Notes: generated by a model from the sequence alone, not told the origin. A DNA stretch of 64,000 nucleotides from an uncultured Acidimicrobiales bacterium (GCA_938038815.1 CALHTF010000013.1:36588-100587), one strand, 5' to 3'; positions 8,744 through 55,915 are shown, numbered from the stretch's first letter. Program-made: numbers and translations.

Positions 8744-11080
8744 GTGATACCTGAGCAACTGGCGGGCAAGCGCATCGCCATCACCGGTTCGACCGGATTC
8801 TTAGGGACCGCCCTGGTCGAGCGGCTGCTTCGTAGCGCGCCCGACTGTGAGCTGGTCCTGTTTGTGCGACCCGGACGACGAGGTGCCTCCGCCCGGGTCA
8901 AACGCGACATTCTCAAAAACAACGCCTTCGATCGCTTGCGCGACGAGTGGGGCGACGAGTTCGACTCGATCTGCGAAGCCCGGGTGCACGGCTACCCCGG
9001 CGACGTCGGCACCGACGGACTCGGCCTCGACGATGAGGGCCGGGCTGCCTTGGCAAGCTGCGACATCGTCATTCACTCCGCGGCCGCCGTGTCGTTCGAC
9101 TCCCCAATCGACCTGGCCGTCGAAGTCAATCTGCTCGGTCCAGTGCGGGTCGCCGAAACCCTCCACGAGCTCGGTGCGTCGCCCCATCTAGTGGCCGTCT
9201 CCACCTGTTACGTGGCCGGAAGCCGCCGCGGCGCAGCACCCGAAGAAGCGGTCGACGACAGCCCGTTCTACGTCGATGTCAATTGGCGCAACGAAGTCGA
9301 CGCCGCCCGTCGAGCTCGCACCGAATTCGAAGACAAAAGTCGCGAGGTCGAGCGACTCGAGGAGTTCACCAATCGGGCCACCTCGGAGCTCGGCGCCGCT
9401 GGACGACCAGCGATCGCCGCCAAGACCGAGCAATTCCGCAGCCGGTGGGTCATCGACCAACTCGCCGAGGCTGGCCGAGCCCGGGCTTCCTCGCTTGGCT
9501 TCCCCGACTCCTACGCCTACACCAAGGCCTTGGGCGAGGTCGCGCTGGCCGAAGTCCGAGGCGACCTTCCGGTATCGACGGTGCGCCCCGCGATCATTGA
9601 GTCTGCGATGGCCGAACCGGTACCCGGCTGGATCCGCGGCTTTCGCATGGCCGAACCGATCATCATCAGCTACGCCCGAGGCCTGCTTCCCGAATTCCCC
9701 GGCGTGCCCGAGGGCATCGTCGATGTGATTCCGGTCGACATGGTCGTCGCTGCGATCTGTGCGGTCGCCGCCCGTGGGCCGATCGAGACCGAGTCGGGCA
9801 AACCCGACATCACCCAGGTCGCCACCGGATCGATCAACCCTCTTCGTTACGGCCGCCTCGTCGACCTCGCCGAAGCGTGGTTCACCGCCAATCCCTTGTA
9901 CGACGAACTCGGCCAGCCCATTGCGGTTCCCGAGTTCTCCTTCCCGGGCCGCGGCCGGGTTCAGCGCCAACTCAGCCGGGCCAGCACATCGCTCGAGCGG
10001 GCCGACAAGGCCCTGTCGATGCTGCCACTTCGAGGCAAGCCTGCCATGTACACCGCCGGGCTCGGCGAACAGAAAGAACAGGTCGAGGCCGCCACCGGAT
10101 ACGTCGAGTTGTACGGCGCCTACGCCGAGTGCGAGGCCGTGTACGGGCTCGACCGACTCATTGCGCTTTGGGAGTCGCTCGACGCCGACGATCAAGAAGC
10201 CTTCGCCTTTGACCCTCGGGTTATCGAATGGTCGACCTATGTCACCGAGGTGCATTTCCCCTCGGTGGTGAAAGCCGGTCGCGTAAAGACGACCCCAGGC
10301 CGCAAGACCGGCCCGACTCGGGCCGAACGCCTGCGGGGCCAGGTTCTCGACGAGCGCCGCGAACTTGCCGTCTTTGACCTCGAGAACACCCTTATCGCCA
10401 GCAACGTGGTCACCTCGTACGCGTGGCTCGCGAGCCGCCAACTCCCCGACCGCGACCGGGGGCGGTTTGTGATGCGGACCCTGATGGAAGCCCCTGCGCT
10501 GCTTGCGCTCGACCGCCAAGACCGCAGCGACTTCCTGCGCCACTTCTATCGGCGCTTCGAGCACGCCAGCGTCGATCAACTCGAAGCCGACTCGGCCGAA
10601 ATGTTCAGCGACCTGATCTTGGCGAAGTCGTTCCCCGCCGCTATTCGACGGGTCCGGGCCCATCGGGCCGCAGGACACCGCACGCTGCTGATCACCGGCG
10701 CCCTCGACCTGGTGGTCAAACCCCTCGAGCCGCTGTTCGACGACATCATCGCCGCCAAACTTGGCGAGACCACCGACAAGACCGACCGGCTTACCTACGA
10801 CGGCAAGCTCACCCGCGTGCCACCGACCGGCGAAGCCCGGTACCAGGCCTTGGCCGACTATGCCGCGGAACACGATCTCAACCTTCGGGAGGCGGTCGCC
10901 TACGCCGACTCGGCGAGCGACCTCCCCATGCTCGAAGCGGTCGGGTTCCCCGTGGCGGTAAACCCCGAAACCAAACTGGCCTCGATCGCCCGCAAACGCG
11001 GGTGGCTGGTCGAACTCTTCGCCAAAGCGCCCGGCGGCCCTCGCAAACTCATTCCACTCGCACCCAGGAGATCTGCCTGA
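8744..11080 (+). CDS. Fatty acyl-CoA reductase (NAD_binding_4 / male-sterility type) fused to a HAD-IB hydrolase domain
   Basis: N-terminal Rossmann motif ITGSTGFLGTALVERLL plus YAYTKALGE (YxxxK). The C-terminal half has HAD motifs: VFDLENTLI (DxxxT-like), LITGALD and YADSASDLPML. The architecture resembles mycobacterial AcrA1-type proteins, from memory. Confidence 0.8.
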   Translation: MIPEQLAGKRIAITGSTGFLGTALVERLLRSAPDCELVLFVRPGRRGASARVKRDILKNNAFDRLRDEWGDEFDSICEARVHGYPGDVGTDGLGLDDEGRAALASCDIVIHSAAAVSFDSPIDLAVEVNLLGPVRVAETLHELGASPHLVAVSTCYVAGSRRGAAPEEAVDDSPFYVDVNWRNEVDAARRARTEFEDKSREVERLEEFTNRATSELGAAGRPAIAAKTEQFRSRWVIDQLAEAGRARASSLGFPDSYAYTKALGEVALAEVRGDLPVSTVRPAIIESAMAEPVPGWIRGFRMAEPIIISYARGLLPEFPGVPEGIVDVIPVDMVVAAICAVAARGPIETESGKPDITQVATGSINPLRYGRLVDLAEAWFTANPLYDELGQPIAVPEFSFPGRGRVQRQLSRASTSLERADKALSMLPLRGKPAMYTAGLGEQKEQVEAATGYVELYGAYAECEAVYGLDRLIALWESLDADDQEAFAFDPRVIEWSTYVTEVHFPSVVKAGRVKTTPGRKTGPTRAERLRGQVLDERRELAVFDLENTLIASNVVTSYAWLASRQLPDRDRGRFVMRTLMEAPALLALDRQDRSDFLRHFYRRFEHASVDQLEADSAEMFSDLILAKSFPAAIRRVRAHRAAGHRTLLITGALDLVVKPLEPLFDDIIAAKLGETTDKTDRLTYDGKLTRVPPTGEARYQALADYAAEHDLNLREAVAYADSASDLPMLEAVGFPVAVNPETKLASIARKRGWLVELFAKAPGGPRKLIPLAPRRSA

Positions 11081-19273: not shown

Positions 19274-20839
19274 TTAGCCGAAGGTGCAGGTGTCGCCACC
19301 GGTCATCGACCGCAGGCGGATGTTGTTGTTCGTTCCACCGGTCGAACCGTAGATCGGCCCCTGGTCGTTCAAGCGGTAGGTCTGGTTGTCCGCGTCGACC
19401 ACGAGGCCATCGCCGTAGAACGGTTCGAGGTCCTTCGCCCGCACCCCAACGCCGGCTCCCCGTTTGGTGACCAACCCCTCGGGCGCAGCGGTTCGCCGGT
19501 TCTCGACGTGCCATTGCACAAACCGGCGCGGACCCGATCCGTCGGCTTGTTCGCCCGCAAAGATCAACTGCAGATCGCCAATCGCAACAATCCGAACCTC
19601 TGGCGCCTCGCACCGAGCGTCGGGGCCAAACCCGGAATCACTGCTCGGGAACCCGGCGGCTATCGCTACCTGCTCGAGCGCAGCGTCAGCATCGAAACCA
19701 AACGGAACGTTCGCTTCATCGCCCGAGTCAGGTGCCAACACGATGCCGCGACCGCTCAGTGCAATCGGCCCCGGCCCTTCGAGTTCGGGCAGCGTGGTGG
19801 TGGTCGTGCTGGTGGTGGTCGACGTGCTCGTCGTGGTCGGTGTCACCGTCGTTTGGGTAACCGTCGTTTGGGTGGCAGTGGTCTCGACCGCCGGTGTTGT
19901 CGTCCCCACGCCATCGATGGTGGTCGTTGCCGAAGACGAGTTGTTGTTCGACGAACGAATCTGTAGGAACAACAAGCCGGCCAGCACCGCAAGGGTGGCT
20001 GCCGCTACCGCAATTGCGAGATACCAACCTCGCGACGACGACTTCGCCGGTTGTGGAGCGACGCGTCGCTGGGTCGGAGCCGGCGGCGCCACGGCGGGCG
20101 CGCTCGCCACCACCGGCACCGGTTCGGTATCGCCGAAATCATCGTCGGCCTCAAAGACCGTGTCGGGTCCTTCGGGGTCATAGATCGATTCGATCGTCGT
20201 GGGTTTGGGCGGAGGCTCCGGCAACGGACCTTCGAGATCTTCTCGGGTGACGAGCGGCATCGGGACCGGCTGGGTCAGTTCGAGCCCGTCCTCCAACGCC
20301 TTCGACGACAAGACCGCTGCGCCGTAGGCGCCGAGGTAGGCCGGTTCGAGTTGATCGCCGCCCTCCGATAATGCACTGGCGATCGCAATGGCCTCATTCG
20401 AGGCACTGAGCGTGATGTTGGTGATGCCCGCCCGGCCAGCAGCAGAAACCAAGGCGCTGGTCTCGTTACCGCGCCACGCCGCAGGATACGAGATCACCAC
20501 GTGCTGGGGCGGCTCACCGAACCGCTCGGCCGCTACCGCCACAACTTGTTCCAACAGTGCGCTGACCAGAACCTCGCCGGTGATCTGACGACCGTTGATG
20601 TCGGTCAGCGACGACCGTGAAAGCAATGCCAGCGGATCTTCGACAAACCCGCCCGGCTCAACCGCCGCGGCTTCGATAGCCGCCTCGCCGGCCGACACCG
20701 CGCCGGCTACCGAAACGTGAGCGACGGTGGCCATCGCGGCCGCGTTCTGCCCAACCGCCAGCAGGCGAACCTCTCGGTCGGCCAGGCTGGCAGCCATAGT
20801 TATAGACGCGCCGATGTCGATACCCAGGCGGTAAGCCAT
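19274..20839 (-). CDS. Membrane-anchored protein: truncated Hsp70/actin-like N-domain, TM helix, Thr-rich linker, extracytoplasmic C-domain
   Basis: N-terminus YRLGIDIGASITMAA...HVVISYPAAWRG resembles the DnaK phosphate-1 and connect motifs. The TM is WYLAIAVAAATLAVLAGLLFL. A TTTSTSTTTSTTTTT linker follows. The start overlaps the upstream stop by 1 nt (TAATG). Confidence 0.55.
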   Translation of the reverse strand: MAYRLGIDIGASITMAASLADREVRLLAVGQNAAAMATVAHVSVAGAVSAGEAAIEAAAVEPGGFVEDPLALLSRSSLTDINGRQITGEVLVSALLEQVVAVAAERFGEPPQHVVISYPAAWRGNETSALVSAAGRAGITNITLSASNEAIAIASALSEGGDQLEPAYLGAYGAAVLSSKALEDGLELTQPVPMPLVTREDLEGPLPEPPPKPTTIESIYDPEGPDTVFEADDDFGDTEPVPVVASAPAVAPPAPTQRRVAPQPAKSSSRGWYLAIAVAAATLAVLAGLLFLQIRSSNNNSSSATTTIDGVGTTTPAVETTATQTTVTQTTVTPTTTSTSTTTSTTTTTLPELEGPGPIALSGRGIVLAPDSGDEANVPFGFDADAALEQVAIAAGFPSSDSGFGPDARCEAPEVRIVAIGDLQLIFAGEQADGSGPRRFVQWHVENRRTAAPEGLVTKRGAGVGVRAKDLEPFYGDGLVVDADNQTYRLNDQGPIYGSTGGTNNNIRLRSMTGGDTCTFG

Positions 20840-22362
20840 TAGGAAACTTTTAGTTCCTCAGGGGCTTTGCCGGCGGGATAGGTACGGGCCAACTGTTCGG
20901 GGGTCGGGTCGACCTTGTCCGAGGCTTCGGGCGGCAGTTCGGCGCGAATCGCGTCCATGATCGCGGCGACCACTTTCTGCTCGCGCTTTTGGACCTGGGC
21001 TTTGGTCAGCTTCTTCGACGATTTCTTAGTCGACTTCTTGGCGCTCGACTTCTTTGACTTGGTGGCCGGAACCTTCATCGCTTTGGTGAGGTCGACCGGA
21101 GGGCCAAGCCGCACCCGCACTTTGGGCGGGCTGGTGATGTTCCACACCGCGGGGAGCTTTGCGTTACGGGGCCACACATCTTCGGATCCCCACAAGCCAA
21201 GAGGGATCACCGGCGCTCCGGTCTCGATCGCCAGGCGAGCAACACCGGGTCGACCTTCGAGTTCGGGGTCGAAGAACTTTGGCCCTCGCGGGATGGTGCC
21301 CTCGGGCAAGATAACGACAACCTCGCCTGCTTCGAGCGCCGAGATTGCCCGTTCGAGAGGTTCGCCCGAACCCGAACCTCGGTCGACCCGAATCGTGCCG
21401 AGTGACTTTACTACCTGCCCAACCACCGGTGCATCGACGACCTCTTTCTTGGCGAGGAATCGCACCGGCCGACCGACTCGGGCCATCGCGAAGCCGATAA
21501 CCAGCGGGTCGAAGTAGCTGCGGTGATTCGCCGCAATGATGACCGGTCCCTCTTTCGGCACAAAGTCGGTGCCGTCGATGTCGAACCGGGCGTAGGGAAC
21601 CATCTCGGGGCGAGCAACGGCGAGCACGGCCTCTTGGGGTTCGGTTCCGAGCACCTTTGGGACACCGTCGGGCACGTCGAGGTAGGCAACCGGCCACCGC
21701 ATGGCGGTCGCCGCAACCAACAGGCGGGGGTCGGGGTTGACCGCGACCGGATGTTCGACGGCCCGCAGAAGCGGAAGGTCGTACCGGCTATCGGAGTAGG
21801 CGTAACTCGATGCGAGATCGACCCCGTTCTCCTCGCACCATTCAGCGACGGCGTCGCGTTTACCGGGCCCCCACACGTAGTGGCCATCGACGGTGCCGTC
21901 GTACTTGCCTTTGCTCTCGCCGTACTTGGTGGCGATCACGTCGTCGAGGCCCAGCAGGTCGCCGAGCGGCTTGCAGACCGTCATCGGACTCGTGGTTGCC
22001 ATAACCACCTTGCGTCCTTCTTCGCGGTGCCAGTCGATCAACTGACGGGCATAGGGCTGCAGTAGCGGTTCGAGTTGTTCGGCTGCGGCTTGGCCGGCCT
22101 GGGCGACCTTTTTGGCATCCCATCCTTTCGAGAACCGGATCCCGAATCGAGCAAGAGCCATCGACGGACGGTTCTCGCCGACCAGGTCAAAAAGGCCGAA
22201 CAAGGCGTCTTCGACCGGTGACTTTGCGGTGGTGAGCAACCCGACGTCGCGCAGCGCTTGGGAAACCACGGGGCCGCTGGCCCCGGCCAGCAGCGTCCGG
22301 TCAAGGTCGAAGAATGCTGCATTCGTTGCACGTTGCTTTGATTTGGCCACAGGTTCTCCCAT
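20839..22362 (-). CDS. plsC: Bifunctional HAD-IB phosphatase-like / 1-acyl-sn-glycerol-3-phosphate acyltransferase (Rv2483c PlsC-like fusion)
   Basis: Start set at the ATG at 22362 (MGEPVAKSK). HAD motifs are FFDLDRTLL and YSDSRYDLPLL. Acyltransferase motifs are AANHRSYFDPLV (HxxxxD), IRVDRG and ILPEGT. The tail is Lys-rich. Confidence 0.8.
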   Translation of the reverse strand: MGEPVAKSKQRATNAAFFDLDRTLLAGASGPVVSQALRDVGLLTTAKSPVEDALFGLFDLVGENRPSMALARFGIRFSKGWDAKKVAQAGQAAAEQLEPLLQPYARQLIDWHREEGRKVVMATTSPMTVCKPLGDLLGLDDVIATKYGESKGKYDGTVDGHYVWGPGKRDAVAEWCEENGVDLASSYAYSDSRYDLPLLRAVEHPVAVNPDPRLLVAATAMRWPVAYLDVPDGVPKVLGTEPQEAVLAVARPEMVPYARFDIDGTDFVPKEGPVIIAANHRSYFDPLVIGFAMARVGRPVRFLAKKEVVDAPVVGQVVKSLGTIRVDRGSGSGEPLERAISALEAGEVVVILPEGTIPRGPKFFDPELEGRPGVARLAIETGAPVIPLGLWGSEDVWPRNAKLPAVWNITSPPKVRVRLGPPVDLTKAMKVPATKSKKSSAKKSTKKSSKKLTKAQVQKREQKVVAAIMDAIRAELPPEASDKVDPTPEQLARTYPAGKAPEELKVS

Positions 22363-22428
22363 CGGCGTCCCGCAAGGCGAGGTTACCCTGTTGGTCGAAA
22401 TTTGGCCGAAACACCGCACCGCGAAAGA

Positions 22429-22482
22429 TGCCGCCAGAGAAAAGCACCGCCAAAAATGCCGCCAAAAATACCGCAAAACGCA
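22429..22482. repeat. Degenerate ~12-nt tandem repeat with phased A-tracts (TGCCGCCAAAAA-like x4)
   Basis: Sequence TGCCGCCAGAGAAAAG CACCGCCAAAAA TGCCGCCAAAAA TACCGCAAAACG. It lies in the divergent plsC-like / LysR intergenic region. Further A-tracts occur upstream at about 22397, 22409 and 22424. Confidence 0.6.
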
Positions 22483-22660
22483 GAACAGACCGGAAGGGGG
22501 ATTCCGGTCCGTTCTCTTCGACTTGGATCGGGGGGAACCAGATCTGGTCGGATGTGCGAGCCAGTGAGGGGGATCACTGTTTTGCTCGTTAGAGAAAGTA
22601 TTCACGAAGTCCCAATATCTGTCCAACAGTTCCTATGGATAACTGGTATCATTTTCACAG

Positions 22661-51751: not shown

Positions 51752-51777
51752 TCGGTTAGTGAGCGCAGCGAACGGCG

Positions 51778-51862
51778 CGGAGGAGGTGGGATTCGAACCC
51801 ACGGTAGGTCTCCCTACACACGCTTTCCAAGCGTGCCGGATCGGCCGCTCTCGCACTCCTCC
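51778..51862 (-). tRNA. tRNA-Ser (anticodon GGA), no encoded CCA
   Basis: The reverse complement reads GGAGGAGUGCGAGAGCGGCCGAUCCGGCACGCUUGGAAAGCGUGUGUAGGGAGACCUACCGUGGGUUCGAAUCCCACCUCCUCCG. It shows a 7-bp acceptor stem, the anticodon loop UUGGAAA, a long variable arm, and a GGUUCGAAUCC T-loop. Confidence 0.9.
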
Positions 51863-51927: not shown

Positions 51928-52033
51928 GTGGCGACCGGGTCCTGTGCAATTGAGTTCTGTGAACCGAGTCAGGGCCGGAAGGCAGCAGCTCTCAGCGGAA
52001 AACTCGATGTGCCGCAGATCGCCTGGTCGTCAC
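51928..52033 (+). ncRNA. ffs: Signal recognition particle RNA (small bacterial 4.5S type)
   Basis: AGUCAGGGCCGGAAGGCAGCAGCUC matches the conserved domain IV motif (E. coli GGUCAGGUCCGGAAGGAAGCAGCC), with the GGAA tetraloop at 51977-51980. The ends pair as GUGGCGACC (51928-36) with GGUCGUCAC (52025-33). Internal helices are CUGUGC/GCCGCAG and GAGUU/AACUC. Confidence 0.78.
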
Positions 52034-52067: not shown

Positions 52068-55000
52068 CTACTCCGACGGCTCGGGGTTGGTGACCGATTC
52101 GGGCCATTCGAGGGTGTTGGTCATCGTTACGGTCGCCCCGGCGCTCTTGCCGAACGAGATCGGAACCCGGGCGCTGTCGCGGCCGGTGGTGGTGTAGATC
52201 ACACAGTCGTCGGTGCAGAACCGCTGTATCCCGATAAACGACCGAAACGATTGGGCAGCCACGAAGTCGAACGTGAAGGCTCCGGTGTCGTCGACCAGCA
52301 CCGTCGCCAGCGGGAACTCCCCACACTCGCTAGCCCAGTCGCTGCCGCCATTTCCCGGTTCGCCGGGGAGTGTCGGCACGTCGGCTTTGCAGACCCCAAA
52401 AGACAGCCAAGATCCGGGGGCCCAGTGCTTGCCGCTAAGCGTGATGCGGTCGCCGTTCGTCAAGTCCGTTGTGGGCGTAGCCGCTAGTTCGGGGGCCGGA
52501 AACGGTTGGGCGTTGGCGTCGAACGACAGCGCGAGTCGCTGCTCCTTAGAGCTCTGAGCGAGGTCGACGGTTGCGTATCGAACCTGCAGCACACAGGTCG
52601 CCTTCGCGCAGTCGGTGTCGCCGACTTCTCGGCGCACTTGGCCTGCCAGCGTGGTGGTCGAAGTCCGCGAATCTGGACGAGACAGAGTGATCCGTTGACA
52701 ATCGACCAGTTCGTCGTCGGCCGCTTCGACGCACTGCATCACGTCGTAGCTCGTCACAAAGCCATCGATCTCGATGGTGATCGGATTCCGGTCGACCAGC
52801 CCACTAGATGGGGCGACCGAGATCGTTGGCGCCTTGACTCGACGAGCCGACTTGTCGATCCGAACCCGAATCGATGCGGCGACTCGTTGATCCTTGCCGC
52901 GCAACACCACCCAACACGAGACCTTCGTGCAGTCGCGGCCGCGCACATCGCGGCTCACGGCGGCCGTCAATTCGATCGGACCATCGAGGGTCGATTCATC
53001 CGATGTCGCCATGAAGCGACAGCCGTTACCGTCAACCGGGTTTTCATAGACGCACTGCGAAACCGTCACGCCCCCGAAGTCGCCACCGACGGCGATCTGA
53101 ATATCTTCGCCGTCGACGAGCTTGCGGGTCTTCGACAACGTGAACGATGTCTTGGGCGGTGCTGGCTCGGAACTGGCGAACTTCACGCGTGCCGAGTCGC
53201 TCCAGCGGCCTTCAAACTGGTTGAACACAAACACATTGCAGCCCCGACCCTTTGCGCAATCGACGCGTTTGCCATCGCGATAGACGTACCGCGGGAGCGA
53301 AACCTTGGCCATCGAGTCGGTGCCATCGGTGGTCCACGCTCCGCCGAGGACGGTGCAACCATCGGTGTAAAGGTAGGTGTTGGCCTGGGAGCTCGAGATG
53401 CCCAAGGCACATTGCTTCGCGTTGAAGCCACCGACAAAGTCGTTCACCCGCAACTCGACCTCTTGGCGGTTCGACAACCCAGTGTTGGGCTCGATGTTCA
53501 GCGCGGGCGGCGAGGGCGGCTCGAAGTTCGGGTCGAACGAGATCGCCTTGCGAAGCACCAGTTCAGCGCCGTTCGTGACCACGGCTTGCAGCTCACAGTT
53601 CTTGGCCTTTTCGCCGCAGTCGACGCGGGTGCCCGCCACGTCGATCACTCGGGCAACGCTGTACTCGATCGAGAACTTTGCCTTCGAGATCTCTTCAAAG
53701 GAACCGGTGATTCCACAGGTCGTGCCCCGCGGACATTGGTTGATCGCTATCGACGTACCCGGCGTCATGCCGGTAAACGACATCCGCACGATGTCGCCGT
53801 GGCTGAGGTTCTTTGCCTTGTTGAGCTTCAACTTTGGTTTGGCCGGGGCGCCTTCGTCGACCAGGGTCAACGCCCGAGCCGGACCAACCTGACCAACACC
53901 TGGCACCCACGTGACGATGTTGCACGCCCCGGGCTTCGCCGCGCAGTCGATCATCTCTTGGACTGGCTGACCGCTGTCCCAATTGGTCCGCGACAGCATC
54001 CGCAAAACACGACCGGTGATCTTTACCCCCTCGGCCGGCAACAACGAAACGGCGTCGCCGTTTTCAAACCCGTACCATCCGCCGACCGCTCGACAACCCG
54101 CGCCACGGCCGGTTCGGACCTCGCCCGGACATTGGAACACGGTCACATCGTCGACCGACCCCTGCACCTTCGCCCAGACTTTGGCGCCGTCGGTGAGTCG
54201 CTTGAGGTTCTTTGAATACTTCACCGACGGTTTCGGTATCGGCTCGTTGGTCCGGGCAAAGCGCAATCCAGTGCTGCTCACCAACCCGCCATTGGAAAAG
54301 ACCGAAATCGAGCACGCATTCGCCGCCGCCGCGCAATCGAAAACTTCTCCGTCGAGGTTCAGCGCCCGCGTGAGCGTTACTACCTCCGCGCCGGACTCAA
54401 ACAACCCTTGGGCGAGTCGGCGACATCCGGGAGCCCACTGCTCGGTCGGGGCGCCAGGGCATTGCAGAAAGTTGAAGTAATAGTTCCGCGAGCCGTTCTC
54501 GAGGTTGTCCAAGGTCACCGTCACTTCGGACCGGTCAACAAAGCCGCCCCGTGGCGAAAGGGTGACCTTTGGTGGTTTGGGCGGCTTCACCGACGGGTCG
54601 AAATGCAGCGGCGCTTCGACCGTTTCGTCGCCGTGGTTAACCCGAAGCGTGCAGGCTCCAGCGCGGGCGCCGCAGTCGACTCGCTGTCCGCCGACCGAGA
54701 CCATCCGCTGCACGTTGACCATGCCAAAGAACTCGCCGTTCGGGCCAAGGTCGGAGTAGTAGTTGGCGCCGAAGTCACAGTCGTCGTGGGAGTTTGCCCG
54801 CACCGCCGCACACTGTTGGATCCACGCGTTGGGATTAAACACAAAGCCAGTACCGGTCACCGTGACCCGGTCGCCGTCGACCAAATTGCGGGCCGGTTTC
54901 ACCTTGATCGACGGTGGGGTCGGAATCGGCGCACTCGGATCGAAGGTCACGTTTGCGGTGCCCGACCGGTTGCTGTCGTCGCCCCCGTTGGCGAGGCTCA

Positions 55001-55397
55001 CGACGGCAAACATGCATCCGTCGGTCGCGCAGTCGAAGGGGCCGTCATCGGTCTGGATCTGGCGACGGGCCGAAAACTCGAGCCGAAATTCGCCTTGTTC
55101 GTTTGCGCCGCCCGCCACGACGATCCCGTTATCGCACCCGCGGTCGGCGGTGGCTGTACGACGACACTGAAACCCGATCACGCCGCTCCAGGCCGGCACC
55201 CCAGACCCGGTGACCACAACCCGATCGCCGGTAACCAGGTCGTCCGCAGGTGCCGCGGTGATCGAAATCGAATTGTCACCAAAGCCGCCCTGGGCGCCGG
55301 CGATCTCGTCTCCCGCCGAGGCCAAAAGCAGGGTGAAGCCACCGATCAACCCGATCGCAAAACCCAAAAGACGACGTCCATTTCGGGTACTCAACAT
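52068..55397 (-). CDS. Large secreted protein composed of nine tandem neocarzinostatin-family (Ig-like, two-disulfide) domains
   Basis: The ATG at 55397 is preceded by GGGGAG. Signal/TM: RRLLGFAIGLIGGFTLLLASAG. There are nine ~105-125-aa repeats, each with L-x-DG-x-V-x-V-x-G, then QC...C, then DC....C, ending in F(D). For example, ISVAPSSGLVDRNPITIEIDGFVTSYDVMQC..DC..DCAKATCVLQV resembles the neocarzinostatin apoprotein TVTPSSGLSDGTVVKVAGAGL..QC..AC..DCTTAACQVGL. Confidence 0.75.
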   Translation of the reverse strand: MLSTRNGRRLLGFAIGLIGGFTLLLASAGDEIAGAQGGFGDNSISITAAPADDLVTGDRVVVTGSGVPAWSGVIGFQCRRTATADRGCDNGIVVAGGANEQGEFRLEFSARRQIQTDDGPFDCATDGCMFAVVSLANGGDDSNRSGTANVTFDPSAPIPTPPSIKVKPARNLVDGDRVTVTGTGFVFNPNAWIQQCAAVRANSHDDCDFGANYYSDLGPNGEFFGMVNVQRMVSVGGQRVDCGARAGACTLRVNHGDETVEAPLHFDPSVKPPKPPKVTLSPRGGFVDRSEVTVTLDNLENGSRNYYFNFLQCPGAPTEQWAPGCRRLAQGLFESGAEVVTLTRALNLDGEVFDCAAAANACSISVFSNGGLVSSTGLRFARTNEPIPKPSVKYSKNLKRLTDGAKVWAKVQGSVDDVTVFQCPGEVRTGRGAGCRAVGGWYGFENGDAVSLLPAEGVKITGRVLRMLSRTNWDSGQPVQEMIDCAAKPGACNIVTWVPGVGQVGPARALTLVDEGAPAKPKLKLNKAKNLSHGDIVRMSFTGMTPGTSIAINQCPRGTTCGITGSFEEISKAKFSIEYSVARVIDVAGTRVDCGEKAKNCELQAVVTNGAELVLRKAISFDPNFEPPSPPALNIEPNTGLSNRQEVELRVNDFVGGFNAKQCALGISSSQANTYLYTDGCTVLGGAWTTDGTDSMAKVSLPRYVYRDGKRVDCAKGRGCNVFVFNQFEGRWSDSARVKFASSEPAPPKTSFTLSKTRKLVDGEDIQIAVGGDFGGVTVSQCVYENPVDGNGCRFMATSDESTLDGPIELTAAVSRDVRGRDCTKVSCWVVLRGKDQRVAASIRVRIDKSARRVKAPTISVAPSSGLVDRNPITIEIDGFVTSYDVMQCVEAADDELVDCQRITLSRPDSRTSTTTLAGQVRREVGDTDCAKATCVLQVRYATVDLAQSSKEQRLALSFDANAQPFPAPELAATPTTDLTNGDRITLSGKHWAPGSWLSFGVCKADVPTLPGEPGNGGSDWASECGEFPLATVLVDDTGAFTFDFVAAQSFRSFIGIQRFCTDDCVIYTTTGRDSARVPISFGKSAGATVTMTNTLEWPESVTNPEPSE

Positions 55398-55486
55398 GAC
55401 TGCTCCCCAGATGTGGCTGCAGCGCGCCATCCGCCGGTCGGTGGCCGCTACTAGGTCAGACGTTAGCGGAGGAGCATTAGTTCATC

Positions 55487-55915
55487 TCATTTGAGAAGAA
55501 GCTCGGCACACGCTTCCTCTTTGACCCGCCAGGTCACCTCGAACTCGTGGTTGAGCCTTGCATCGGCGCCCACGTTGTACAGCGAAGCGCATGCCCCGGC
55601 CTTCGGGTCGGCGGTGCCGAACACGACCCGGCCAACCCGGGCTTGTGACGCCGCACCCGCGCACATGACGCACGGTTCGAGGGTCACGACGAGGGTGGCG
55701 CCAGTCAGTCGCCAGCTGCCTACCTTTGCTGCTGCGTCGCGCAAGGCAAGGATCTCGGCGTGAGCGGTGGGGTCGCCGGTGAGTTCGCGCTCGTTGTGAC
55801 GGCTCGCCAAGAGTTCGCCATCGAGCATCACAACCGCGCCTACGGGAACGTCGTCATGTTCGAGGGCGGCGCGGGCCTCAGCCAGTGCCAGGACCATCAG
55901 CTCGTCATCAGTCAT
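55487..55915 (-). CDS. tadA: tRNA-specific adenosine deaminase
   Basis: The deaminase motifs HAEILALR and TLEPCVMCAGA (CMP/dCMP zinc-binding type) are present. Length is 142 aa. Confidence 0.9.
   Translation of the reverse strand: MTDDELMVLALAEARAALEHDDVPVGAVVMLDGELLASRHNERELTGDPTAHAEILALRDAAAKVGSWRLTGATLVVTLEPCVMCAGAASQARVGRVVFGTADPKAGACASLYNVGADARLNHEFEVTWRVKEEACAELLLK

Follow-up and report, generated by a model that had tools for sequence, protein, structure and literature searches.

The gene described here lies on the minus strand at positions 52068-55397 of a window of 64,000 nucleotides (nt) from an uncultured Acidimicrobiales bacterium (GCA_938038815.1 CALHTF010000013.1:36588-100587; all coordinates refer to this window) and encodes a protein of 1109 amino acids (aa) that is predicted to consist, behind an N-terminal export signal, of nine tandem domains of the neocarzinostatin (NCS) fold. 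Profile comparisons and structure models assign all nine repeats to this fold, a seven-stranded immunoglobulin (Ig)-like sandwich. Judged from its sequence, the protein is not an enediyne apoprotein. It is probably a cell-surface or extracellular structural or binding protein, adhesin-like or envelope-associated, in which the NCS fold would serve as a general extracellular module and not as an enediyne carrier. An original prediction, made from the DNA sequence, had described an open reading frame (ORF) of this length with nine NCS- and macromomycin-like repeats following a signal or anchor sequence. This description was confirmed by the start context, the cysteine content, hidden Markov models (HMMs) and the structural comparisons presented below, the export of the protein being predicted.

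The protein contains 36 cysteines, distributed as exactly four per repeat over nine consecutive repeats of 108-140 aa (R1-R9; boundaries in Table 1, R9 spanning aa 970-1109 when the C-terminal tail is included), and the proline-rich hinges between the domains comprise 6-8 residues. In an alignment of the nine repeats the first, third and fourth cysteines form invariant columns and the second is shifted by one column in R2; across a 36-domain alignment the four cysteines are invariant. The sequence motifs that the original prediction ascribed to each repeat turned out to be in part less uniform. The four cysteines hold throughout, but the dipeptides QC and DC are each present in only eight of the nine repeats, R9 having VC and FC at these places. 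Only R2, R4 and R7 show the exact L-x-DG opening, the other repeats having an approximate form, and the closing F-D or F-x with the subsequent proline-rich hinge was recorded for R1-R8. The pairwise identity between the repeats amounts to 19-34%. The repeat pattern is nevertheless beyond chance: in a leave-one-out test, in which an HMM of eight repeats was run against the ninth, R1-R8 scored 20-57 bits and R9 10.7 bits, the best of 200 shuffles reaching at most 10 bits. On the DNA level no tandem array of about 330 nt was detected with Tandem Repeats Finder (TRF), only motif-level matches of 20-41 nt. This agrees with the strong DNA-level divergence noted originally, and a recent amplification was rejected as no DNA-level repeat is present.

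Pfam finds no significant family other than PF00960 in the whole protein (95 bits in five stretches, cut-off 25). Scanning the repeats singly, which had been named beforehand as a test of the NCS assignment, showed that R1, R2, R5 and R9 pass the PF00960 cut-off and that R8 stays below it (Table 1), and it gave no direct PF00960 match for R3, R4, R6 and R7. None of the models Big_1-9, CARDB, Rib, CnaB, fn3 or other Ig-like Pfam models matched the whole protein or any repeat at E≤10. The outcome named beforehand as refuting the NCS assignment, higher scores against a different Ig-like family, did therefore not occur. NF040680, the NCBIfam model for enediyne antibiotic chromoproteins, yielded 161 bits on the whole protein as the sum of eight stretches. 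A profile of the nine repeats searched against the PDB returned solved apoproteins as the top eleven sequences (C-1027, kedarcidin, neocarzinostatin, macromomycin and actinoxanthin; E=6e-12 to 4e-8). Moreover, profiles built from the orthologs of the Pfam-negative repeats R3, R4, R6 and R7 always found an enediyne apoprotein as best PDB match, which for R4 was apokedarcidin with an E-value of only 0.078. Because of the leave-one-out HMMs and these ortholog profiles, and for R4 also because of its structure model, these four repeats were joined to the NCS family.

The structural comparisons point in the same direction. An AlphaFold model of R1-R2 with a predicted local distance difference test (pLDDT) score of 81.9 was analysed with Foldseek and matches macromomycin with a template modelling (TM) score of 0.78 (root mean square deviation 2.9 Å) and neocarzinostatin with TM scores of 0.74-0.76; the di-domain alignment used for this model was one in which MAFFT had paired the repeats out of register. 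By Foldseek E-value, two-domain antibody (Fab) structures rank higher for this model, but with TM scores below 0.35. Because such two-domain antibody matches dominated the ranking, a single-domain model was made of R4, the repeat with the weakest sequence match, for which the PDB ranks 1-7 are all enediyne apoproteins (TM 0.53-0.67). The prediction that the repeats resemble these apoproteins is thus borne out in TM score by both models. The cysteines of the repeats align with those of the two NCS disulfides, C37-C47 and C88-C93, the strand order matches too, and the domain topology is complete in the repeats aligned to neocarzinostatin, both hairpins included; the NCS sequence used for this alignment was checked by its agreement with the known numbering of C37, W39, C47, F78, C88 and C93.

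Enediyne apoproteins are single domains of about 110 aa that bind a nine-membered enediyne and are encoded in enediyne polyketide synthase (PKS) clusters, which comprise an enediyne PKS (PKSE) of about 1900 aa and tailoring genes. The protein was placed outside the enediyne-apoprotein equivalog group because of its scores, its architecture and its context. Single repeats score 18-45 bits or nothing compared to the NF040680 equivalog cut-off of 86 bits, and nine domains stand in one chain. The window contains no PKS, its next-longest ORF having 778 aa, and the 20 window ORFs that were scanned are housekeeping or lipid-metabolism genes, five of them without a Pfam match, in line with the initial statement that no enediyne cluster lies nearby. 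In a rough comparison, the positions equivalent to the chromophore crevice (NCS 33, 35, 39, 45, 52, 78, 94, 96 and 98), which were taken in part from PMC5952040 and PMC3754942, vary between the repeats. In five orthologs, aligned with some uncertainty in the loops and to an NCS sequence checked only by its residue numbering, the mean frequency of the major residue is 0.52 at the crevice positions, 0.60 over all positions and 0.80 in the core.

The relatives at the same genomic location show that the nine-domain array is old. A scan restricted to one genome per species found eight loci with a related gene, seven in metagenome-assembled genomes (MAGs) of Acidimicrobiales or Actinomycetota and one in an "uncultured bacterium". 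In the window the gene is located between tadA, encoding a tRNA adenosine deaminase, and the genes for the signal recognition particle (SRP) RNA (ffs) and a tRNA-Ser, as had been stated at the outset (Table 1). tadA precedes the ortholog in the loci L004, L005 and L006 and ffs and tRNA-Ser follow it in L004, L006 and L007, so that the location is kept in at least four species-level Acidimicrobiales genomes; the gene is intact with all nine repeats in L004 and L006, and contig ends truncate it in L005 and L007. The identity of the protein to these positional orthologs is only 30-34%, compared to 66-86% for the neighbouring genes (tadA 69-81%, acyl-CoA dehydrogenase 72-74%, MDMPI 66-67%, Zn peptidase 78-83%, dnaX 86%), and all 36 cysteines and the domain order are kept. 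A given repeat matches best the repeat of the same number in the orthologs P0006, P0007 and P0008 in 23 of 27 comparisons (49-74 bits), the exceptions being all three comparisons of R2 and one of R5; the ortholog P0002, which is cut at its N-terminus, follows this pattern shifted by one repeat. Within the protein, the best paralogous repeat scores 25-54 bits. This position-by-position orthology means that the nine-domain array is older than these lineages, as originally supposed, and that its domains are not interchangeable.

R4 stands out among the repeats. Among orthologs it shows the highest conservation of all repeats (41-42% identity) and keeps two tryptophan positions in all or nearly all of them (WWWWW and WNWWW). 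It also carries an insertion of about 20 aa after the second cysteine that varies in length and sequence among orthologs and is strongly acidic in P0006 and P0008. If any domain has a specific conserved binding site, R4 would be the best candidate as judged from its sequence.

The longest frame reaches an upstream in-frame ATG at 55430 (52068-55430 in the ORF listing). The start at 55397 was preferred because the Shine-Dalgarno-like sequence GGGGAG lies 5 nt upstream of it, and the resulting first residues, MLST, are those of both the public gene call P0001 and the ortholog P0006. The Kyte-Doolittle maximum of the whole protein is found at aa 10-28, there is no second hydrophobic segment, and the N-terminal layout of n-region, hydrophobic region and AxA is common to all orthologs and paralogs examined. 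Instead of being cleaved off, aa 1-28 could act as an uncleaved signal-anchor. A lipoprotein was rejected as the signal peptide contains no cysteine, and a substrate of the twin-arginine translocation (Tat) pathway was rejected as the residues after RR do not match the consensus and the orthologs have no RR. At the C-terminus, an LPXTG or LAXTG motif with hydrophobic stretch and basic tail was looked for and none was found, the C-terminal hydrophobicity being low. A sortase-assembled pilin was rejected as the protein has no sorting signal. The protein ends in a tail with the residues W-P-E, for which Pfam and NCBIfam gave no match to a known sorting signal. The motif WP[EKD] is limited to the five tadA-linked orthologs among the 152 family members examined and is absent from the other 147, and the tail may be a candidate attachment or recognition motif. 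A scan for promoters and terminators between the gene and ffs found none and is uninformative for a high-GC actinobacterium. At window position ~53215 (minus strand; aa 727 in R6) the window encodes N and the protein P0001 from a Logan contig, reported as 100% identical, has D; the window and the P0001 contig therefore stem from a different assembly or strain.

The protein belongs to a very large family. An exhaustive profile search over 1.84 billion cluster representatives (clusters at 50% identity) returned 2818 clusters at E≤1e-3, 1254 at E≤1e-10 and 348 at E≤1e-30, and 3-9 matched stretches were present in all 150 matches listed, the query excluded. Word-indexed protein searches with the full protein, an ortholog alignment and the 36-domain alignment gave 5, 5 and 2 matches, the orthologs from the profile search not being among them. 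In a set of 152 multi-NCS sequences that was re-scanned, most members have four cysteines per repeat, and the domain number peaks at four (63 of 152 proteins) with nine domains in eight proteins. The LAxTG motif is recognized by class-E sortases; 32 of the 152 have an LAxTG or LPxTG motif with a hydrophobic stretch and then a basic tail behind it. Extra segments of at least 150 aa are present in 45 proteins and contain BD-FAE or other alpha/beta-hydrolase esterase domains, beta-lactamase-family domains together with Big_9, pairs of Calx-beta, PKD or RTX. One MAG has two poly-NCS genes in tandem encoding 1012 and 955 aa, and in another the tadA-linked gene (L004) is accompanied by a paralog (L009). 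Streptomyces sp. cmx-4-9 has two adjacent genes of 219 aa, each encoding a signal peptide, one NCS domain and LPQTG, and no PKS was found in the 16 kb around them. This pair ends a same-strand run of four genes (536, 349, 385 and 653 aa) without Pfam match (together L092 1500-8660), and the run may be a surface-structure operon.

The relatives with an esterase domain show a further peculiarity. The proteins P0004, P0005, P0077, P0105, P0109, P0110, P0122, P0125 and P0149 comprise a signal peptide, four NCS domains, a BD-FAE esterase, LPxTG, a transmembrane helix and a basic stretch, P0110 being without the LPxTG motif. They extend 250-400 aa further to a conserved block (HWI...PPMVHVW...CGRFAGVDEHGL.C) without Pfam match, and P0035 carries the same HWI block at residues 457-690 between NCS repeats. 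From the sequence, a sortase signal in mid-protein would divide these relatives into a wall-anchored and a membrane-anchored part.

Databases label such proteins automatically as "neocarzinostatin apoprotein domain-containing protein", and the poly-NCS architecture is visible in databases but undescribed. In the searched literature no functional study of multi-domain NCS proteins was found, and the only protein addressed outside enediyne biology was CwpG, a SrtE-dependent wall protein of Actinoplanes missouriensis that has an NCS-like domain and whose function is unknown (PMC13251363). In addition, the profile of the nine repeats matches residues 53-167 of the 168 residues of ThiX (E=1e-5), a lipoprotein in the cytochrome bcc-aa3 supercomplex of Corynebacterium glutamicum (PDB 7qhm chain M). 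The soluble domain of ThiX is unresolved in cryo-electron microscopy and its activity is unknown (PMC8795186); the profile match suggests that it may be an NCS-fold domain.

Taken together, these observations suggest the following mode of action for a surface or extracellular protein. It would be exported through the Sec pathway, as its N-terminal signal indicates, and would fold oxidatively outside the cytoplasm under formation of 18 disulfides. The product would be an elongated, beads-on-a-string chain of nine beta-sandwich domains with a length of a few tens of nanometres. This chain may be held by the uncleaved signal-anchor, or it may be released and bound to the envelope non-covalently, for which the W-P-E tail is a candidate. 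The fold core, the cysteines and the order of the nine distinct domains appear to be kept, and the exposed surfaces including the former chromophore crevice appear to change fast. This combination would be expected of a structural or binding protein that faces the environment. In the wall-anchored esterases the NCS repeats are placed at the distal N-terminus, and a binding module is therefore favored over a passive stalk.

Several points weigh against this interpretation or limit it. Export, disulfides and location are predictions. The signal may be cleaved or may act as an anchor, the hydrophobic core comprising 17 aa in this protein and up to ~23 aa in the ortholog P0008. The comparison of the crevice draws on five sequences, an NCS sequence checked only by residue numbering and uncertain loop alignments. 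The distal N-terminal position of the repeats in the esterase fusions, not between the enzyme and the wall anchor, is more in keeping with binding than with a passive stalk. Finally, the low identity between the repeats and the conserved domain order fit structural and binding roles alike.

An alternative function is that of a multivalent carrier or sponge for small molecules, in which nine crevices would sequester, protect or shuttle hydrophobic ligands such as an antibiotic, a quinone, haem or another cofactor or a siderophore-like compound at the cell surface. The only experimentally known role of the NCS fold is indeed the tight binding of a labile hydrophobic chromophore, and its crevice is plastic, as it was evolved to bind testosterone (PMC3754942; the structures 2cbo, 2cbq and 2cbt are among the Foldseek matches). 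The first disulfide, which contributes to the pocket of NCS through the chromophore-contacting Cys37 (PMC5952040), is invariant in all repeats, and the domains have their complete topology with both hairpins. Leads from relatives are ThiX (PMC8795186) and a gene with an NCS domain that adjoins the haem-uptake gene HtaA in Jiangella (PMC13608877). However, the crevice-equivalent positions are conserved below average among the orthologs and differ between the repeats, the conserved neighbourhood holds no biosynthetic or transport partner, and no repeat comes near the apoprotein equivalog score, so that a carrier function is considered rather unlikely.

The array might also act like carbohydrate-binding modules (CBMs) and dock a cell or an enzyme on an insoluble substrate such as plant or algal wall, polyester or the envelope of another cell, the protein of the window being an enzyme-free adhesin. 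Many relatives carry four to six NCS repeats at the N-terminus of wall-anchored BD-FAE (feruloyl-esterase-like) or beta-lactamase-family hydrolases, a place that CBMs usually occupy. The two tryptophan positions of R4, the best-conserved repeat, are likewise consistent with such a function, and Foldseek weakly touches a domain of the Streptomyces beta-glucosidase DesR (query-normalized TM score, TMq, 0.42). In contrast, no CBM family scores in the Pfam scans of the whole protein or the repeats, no glycoside hydrolase is found among the fusion partners examined, and aromatic platforms are no general feature of the nine repeats, leaving this role improbable. To a similarly small degree it is conceivable that poly-NCS proteins are multivalent surface capture proteins in which each domain binds a different hydrophobic ligand or polymer epitope and R4 is a specific binder, the apoproteins being a small offshoot, specialised within a far larger actinobacterial family of such extracellular modules.

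A metagenome scan with tadA returned 80 loci of more distant relatives (47-71% identity), of which 65 have at least 400 nt downstream of tadA and could be evaluated, and at none of these 65 loci is an NCS-like repeat encoded. At ten or more of these loci a distance of about 60-500 nt separates tadA from tRNA-Ser(CGA), tRNA-Ser(GGA) and/or ffs, which supports the original statement that these genes are often neighbours, here without the gene. The synteny comparison that had been proposed thus identifies the gene as a clade-specific but old insertion into the tadA/tRNA-Ser/ffs cluster, kept in at least four MAGs. The conserved synteny and the native GC content led to the rejection of a recent horizontal insertion. 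That the gene is a recent or mobile insertion or a decaying relic, placed accidentally at a tRNA/ffs hotspot and without conserved function, is largely refuted and very hard to maintain: insertions at tRNA genes are common, the distant loci lack the gene and the protein diverges far faster than its neighbours, but the gene occupies the same place in the four different species-level genomes (intact in two), its GC content of 0.62-0.63 equals the window average, its frame is open over 1109 codons with all cysteines and the domain order conserved, and integrase genes or flanking repeats are absent from the immediate neighbourhood.

In the metagenome loci L015-L076 two tRNA-Ser genes (CGA and GGA) usually flank tadA, with ffs beside them in two orders and orientations, and in the window tRNA-Ser(GGA) stands alone with no other tRNA in the 64 kb. 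It follows from these differences that the cluster was rearranged as well as interrupted in this clade. The identified ORFs of the window comprise tadA, an acyl-CoA dehydrogenase, a mycothiol-type isomerase, a Zn peptidase, an EamA transporter, a phosphoenolpyruvate (PEP) mutase-family protein, a luciferase-like oxidoreductase, dnaX, aconitase, BipA, a DEAD-box helicase, an acyl-CoA ligase, a fatty-acyl reductase-HAD fusion, a HAD-acyltransferase and a LarA-like protein. Two of them are unusual fusions within 12 kb, a fatty-acyl-CoA reductase (NAD_binding_4/Sterile) fused to a HAD hydrolase (8744-11080, plus strand) and a HAD hydrolase fused to an acyltransferase (20839-22626, minus strand). 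This suggests a lipid, wax or ether-lipid pathway.

Table 1. Features of the poly-NCS gene and its direct neighbours, with window coordinates (LOO, leave-one-out HMM score)
Feature	Position	Strand	Basis and remarks
tRNA-Ser (GGA)	51777..51862	-	ARAGORN; Rfam RF00005
SRP RNA (ffs)	51933..52031	+	Rfam RF00169, 76.3 bits; convergent, 36 nt from the stop codon of the gene
C-terminal tail with W-P-E	52071..52157	-	aa 1081-1109; W1098 and P1099 invariant in five tadA-linked orthologs
Repeat 9 core, most divergent predicted NCS-fold domain	52158..52490	-	aa 970-1080; 22-residue first disulfide loop; PF00960 26.8 bits, positions 1-110; LOO 10.7 vs ≤5.4 bits in shuffles
Repeat 8, predicted NCS-fold domain	52491..52826	-	aa 858-969; PF00960 21.3, NF040680 28.4, LOO 44.8 bits
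Repeat 7, predicted NCS-fold domain	52827..53150	-	aa 750-857; Pfam-negative alone; LOO 33.0 bits; C-1027 apoprotein E=1.1e-3 (ortholog profile)
Repeat 6, predicted NCS-fold domain	53151..53504	-	aa 632-749; Pfam-negative alone; NF040680 18, LOO 45.9 bits; apokedarcidin E=4.2e-5 (ortholog profile)
Repeat 5, predicted NCS-fold domain	53505..53834	-	aa 522-631; PF00960 26.3, LOO 41.2 bits; NF040680 31.2 bits, positions 27-132
Repeat 4, predicted NCS-fold domain	53835..54227	-	aa 391-521; Pfam-negative alone; LOO 20.4 bits; AlphaFold model, pLDDT 88.6
Repeat 3, predicted NCS-fold domain	54228..54569	-	aa 277-390; Pfam-negative alone; LOO 33.4 bits; C-1027 apoprotein E=5.5e-4 (ortholog profile)
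Repeat 2, predicted NCS-fold domain	54570..54911	-	aa 163-276; PF00960 34.0, NF040680 44.6, LOO 56.5 bits
Repeat 1, predicted NCS-fold domain	54912..55268	-	aa 44-162; PF00960 31.7 bits, full model positions 1-110; LOO 45.7 bits; pLDDT ~82 in di-domain model
Gly/Ala-rich N-terminal linker	55269..55313	-	aa 29-43; outside every repeat model
Predicted signal peptide	55314..55397	-	aa 1-28; basic n-region RNGRR, 17-aa hydrophobic core, A-S-A before G29
Shine-Dalgarno-like GGGGAG	55403..55408	-	5-nt spacer to ATG 55397; read directly from the sequence
tadA-type tRNA adenosine deaminase	55487..55915	-	Pfam MafB19-deam, dCMP_cyt_deam_1; upstream neighbour on the same strand, 89-nt gap

As a summary, the value of the single gene is modest; it encodes a well-defined nine-domain member at a conserved locus, and the membership in a very large multi-domain family lowers its singularity and widens its significance. 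The NCS fold has been known almost only from about five single-domain antibiotic carriers and as an engineered binding scaffold. Here it appears as a building block of thousands of predicted extracellular Actinomycetota proteins, hundreds of which are multi-domain and many sortase-anchored or fused to hydrolases. This reframes the origin of the enediyne apoproteins, for which the multi-NCS family is the likely evolutionary source. Moreover, it draws attention to surface proteins that form a major uncharacterised class in Acidimicrobiia, which are abundant in waters and soils and hard to culture, and it supplies protein engineering with a natural collection of NCS scaffolds stabilised by disulfides.

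Compared to known systems, the protein shares with the enediyne apoproteins NcsA, CagA, KedA, actinoxanthin and macromomycin the domain family, the cysteine positions, the strand order and, by prediction, the export, and the R1/R2 and R4 models can be superposed on them with the TM scores given above. It differs from them by nine domains in one chain, scores below the equivalog level, a conserved housekeeping context and apparently non-conserved crevice positions. Closer in setting are CwpG, the Streptomyces sp. cmx-4-9 protein P0155 and the LAxTG multi-repeat relatives, which have the domain family, an N-terminal signal peptide, the predicted extracellular location and the lack of an enediyne context in common with it. 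The sortase-anchored relatives have one to seven repeats and a C-terminal LAxTG or LPxTG, whereas the protein of the window has nine repeats, no sorting signal and the W-P-E tail. ThiX is likewise an extracytoplasmic, membrane-tethered actinobacterial protein with an NCS-like domain and no link to enediynes, but it is a single-domain, lipid-anchored subunit of a respiratory complex.

By analogy, the tandem Ig-like surface proteins of Gram-positive bacteria would be closest to the protein in how it works. These proteins (Rib, SasG G5-E, Big and CnaB stalks), as well as titin, are also strings of small beta-sandwich domains with short linkers, and the bacterial ones project from the cell. A low identity between adjacent domains has been linked to the avoidance of inter-domain misfolding. 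The poly-NCS protein differs from Rib, Big and CnaB proteins in its fold family and in having, as predicted, two disulfides per domain in place of isopeptide bonds or Ca2+. It differs from tandem Ig-like surface proteins also in that its repeats are not homogenised and each position represents an old and distinct lineage.

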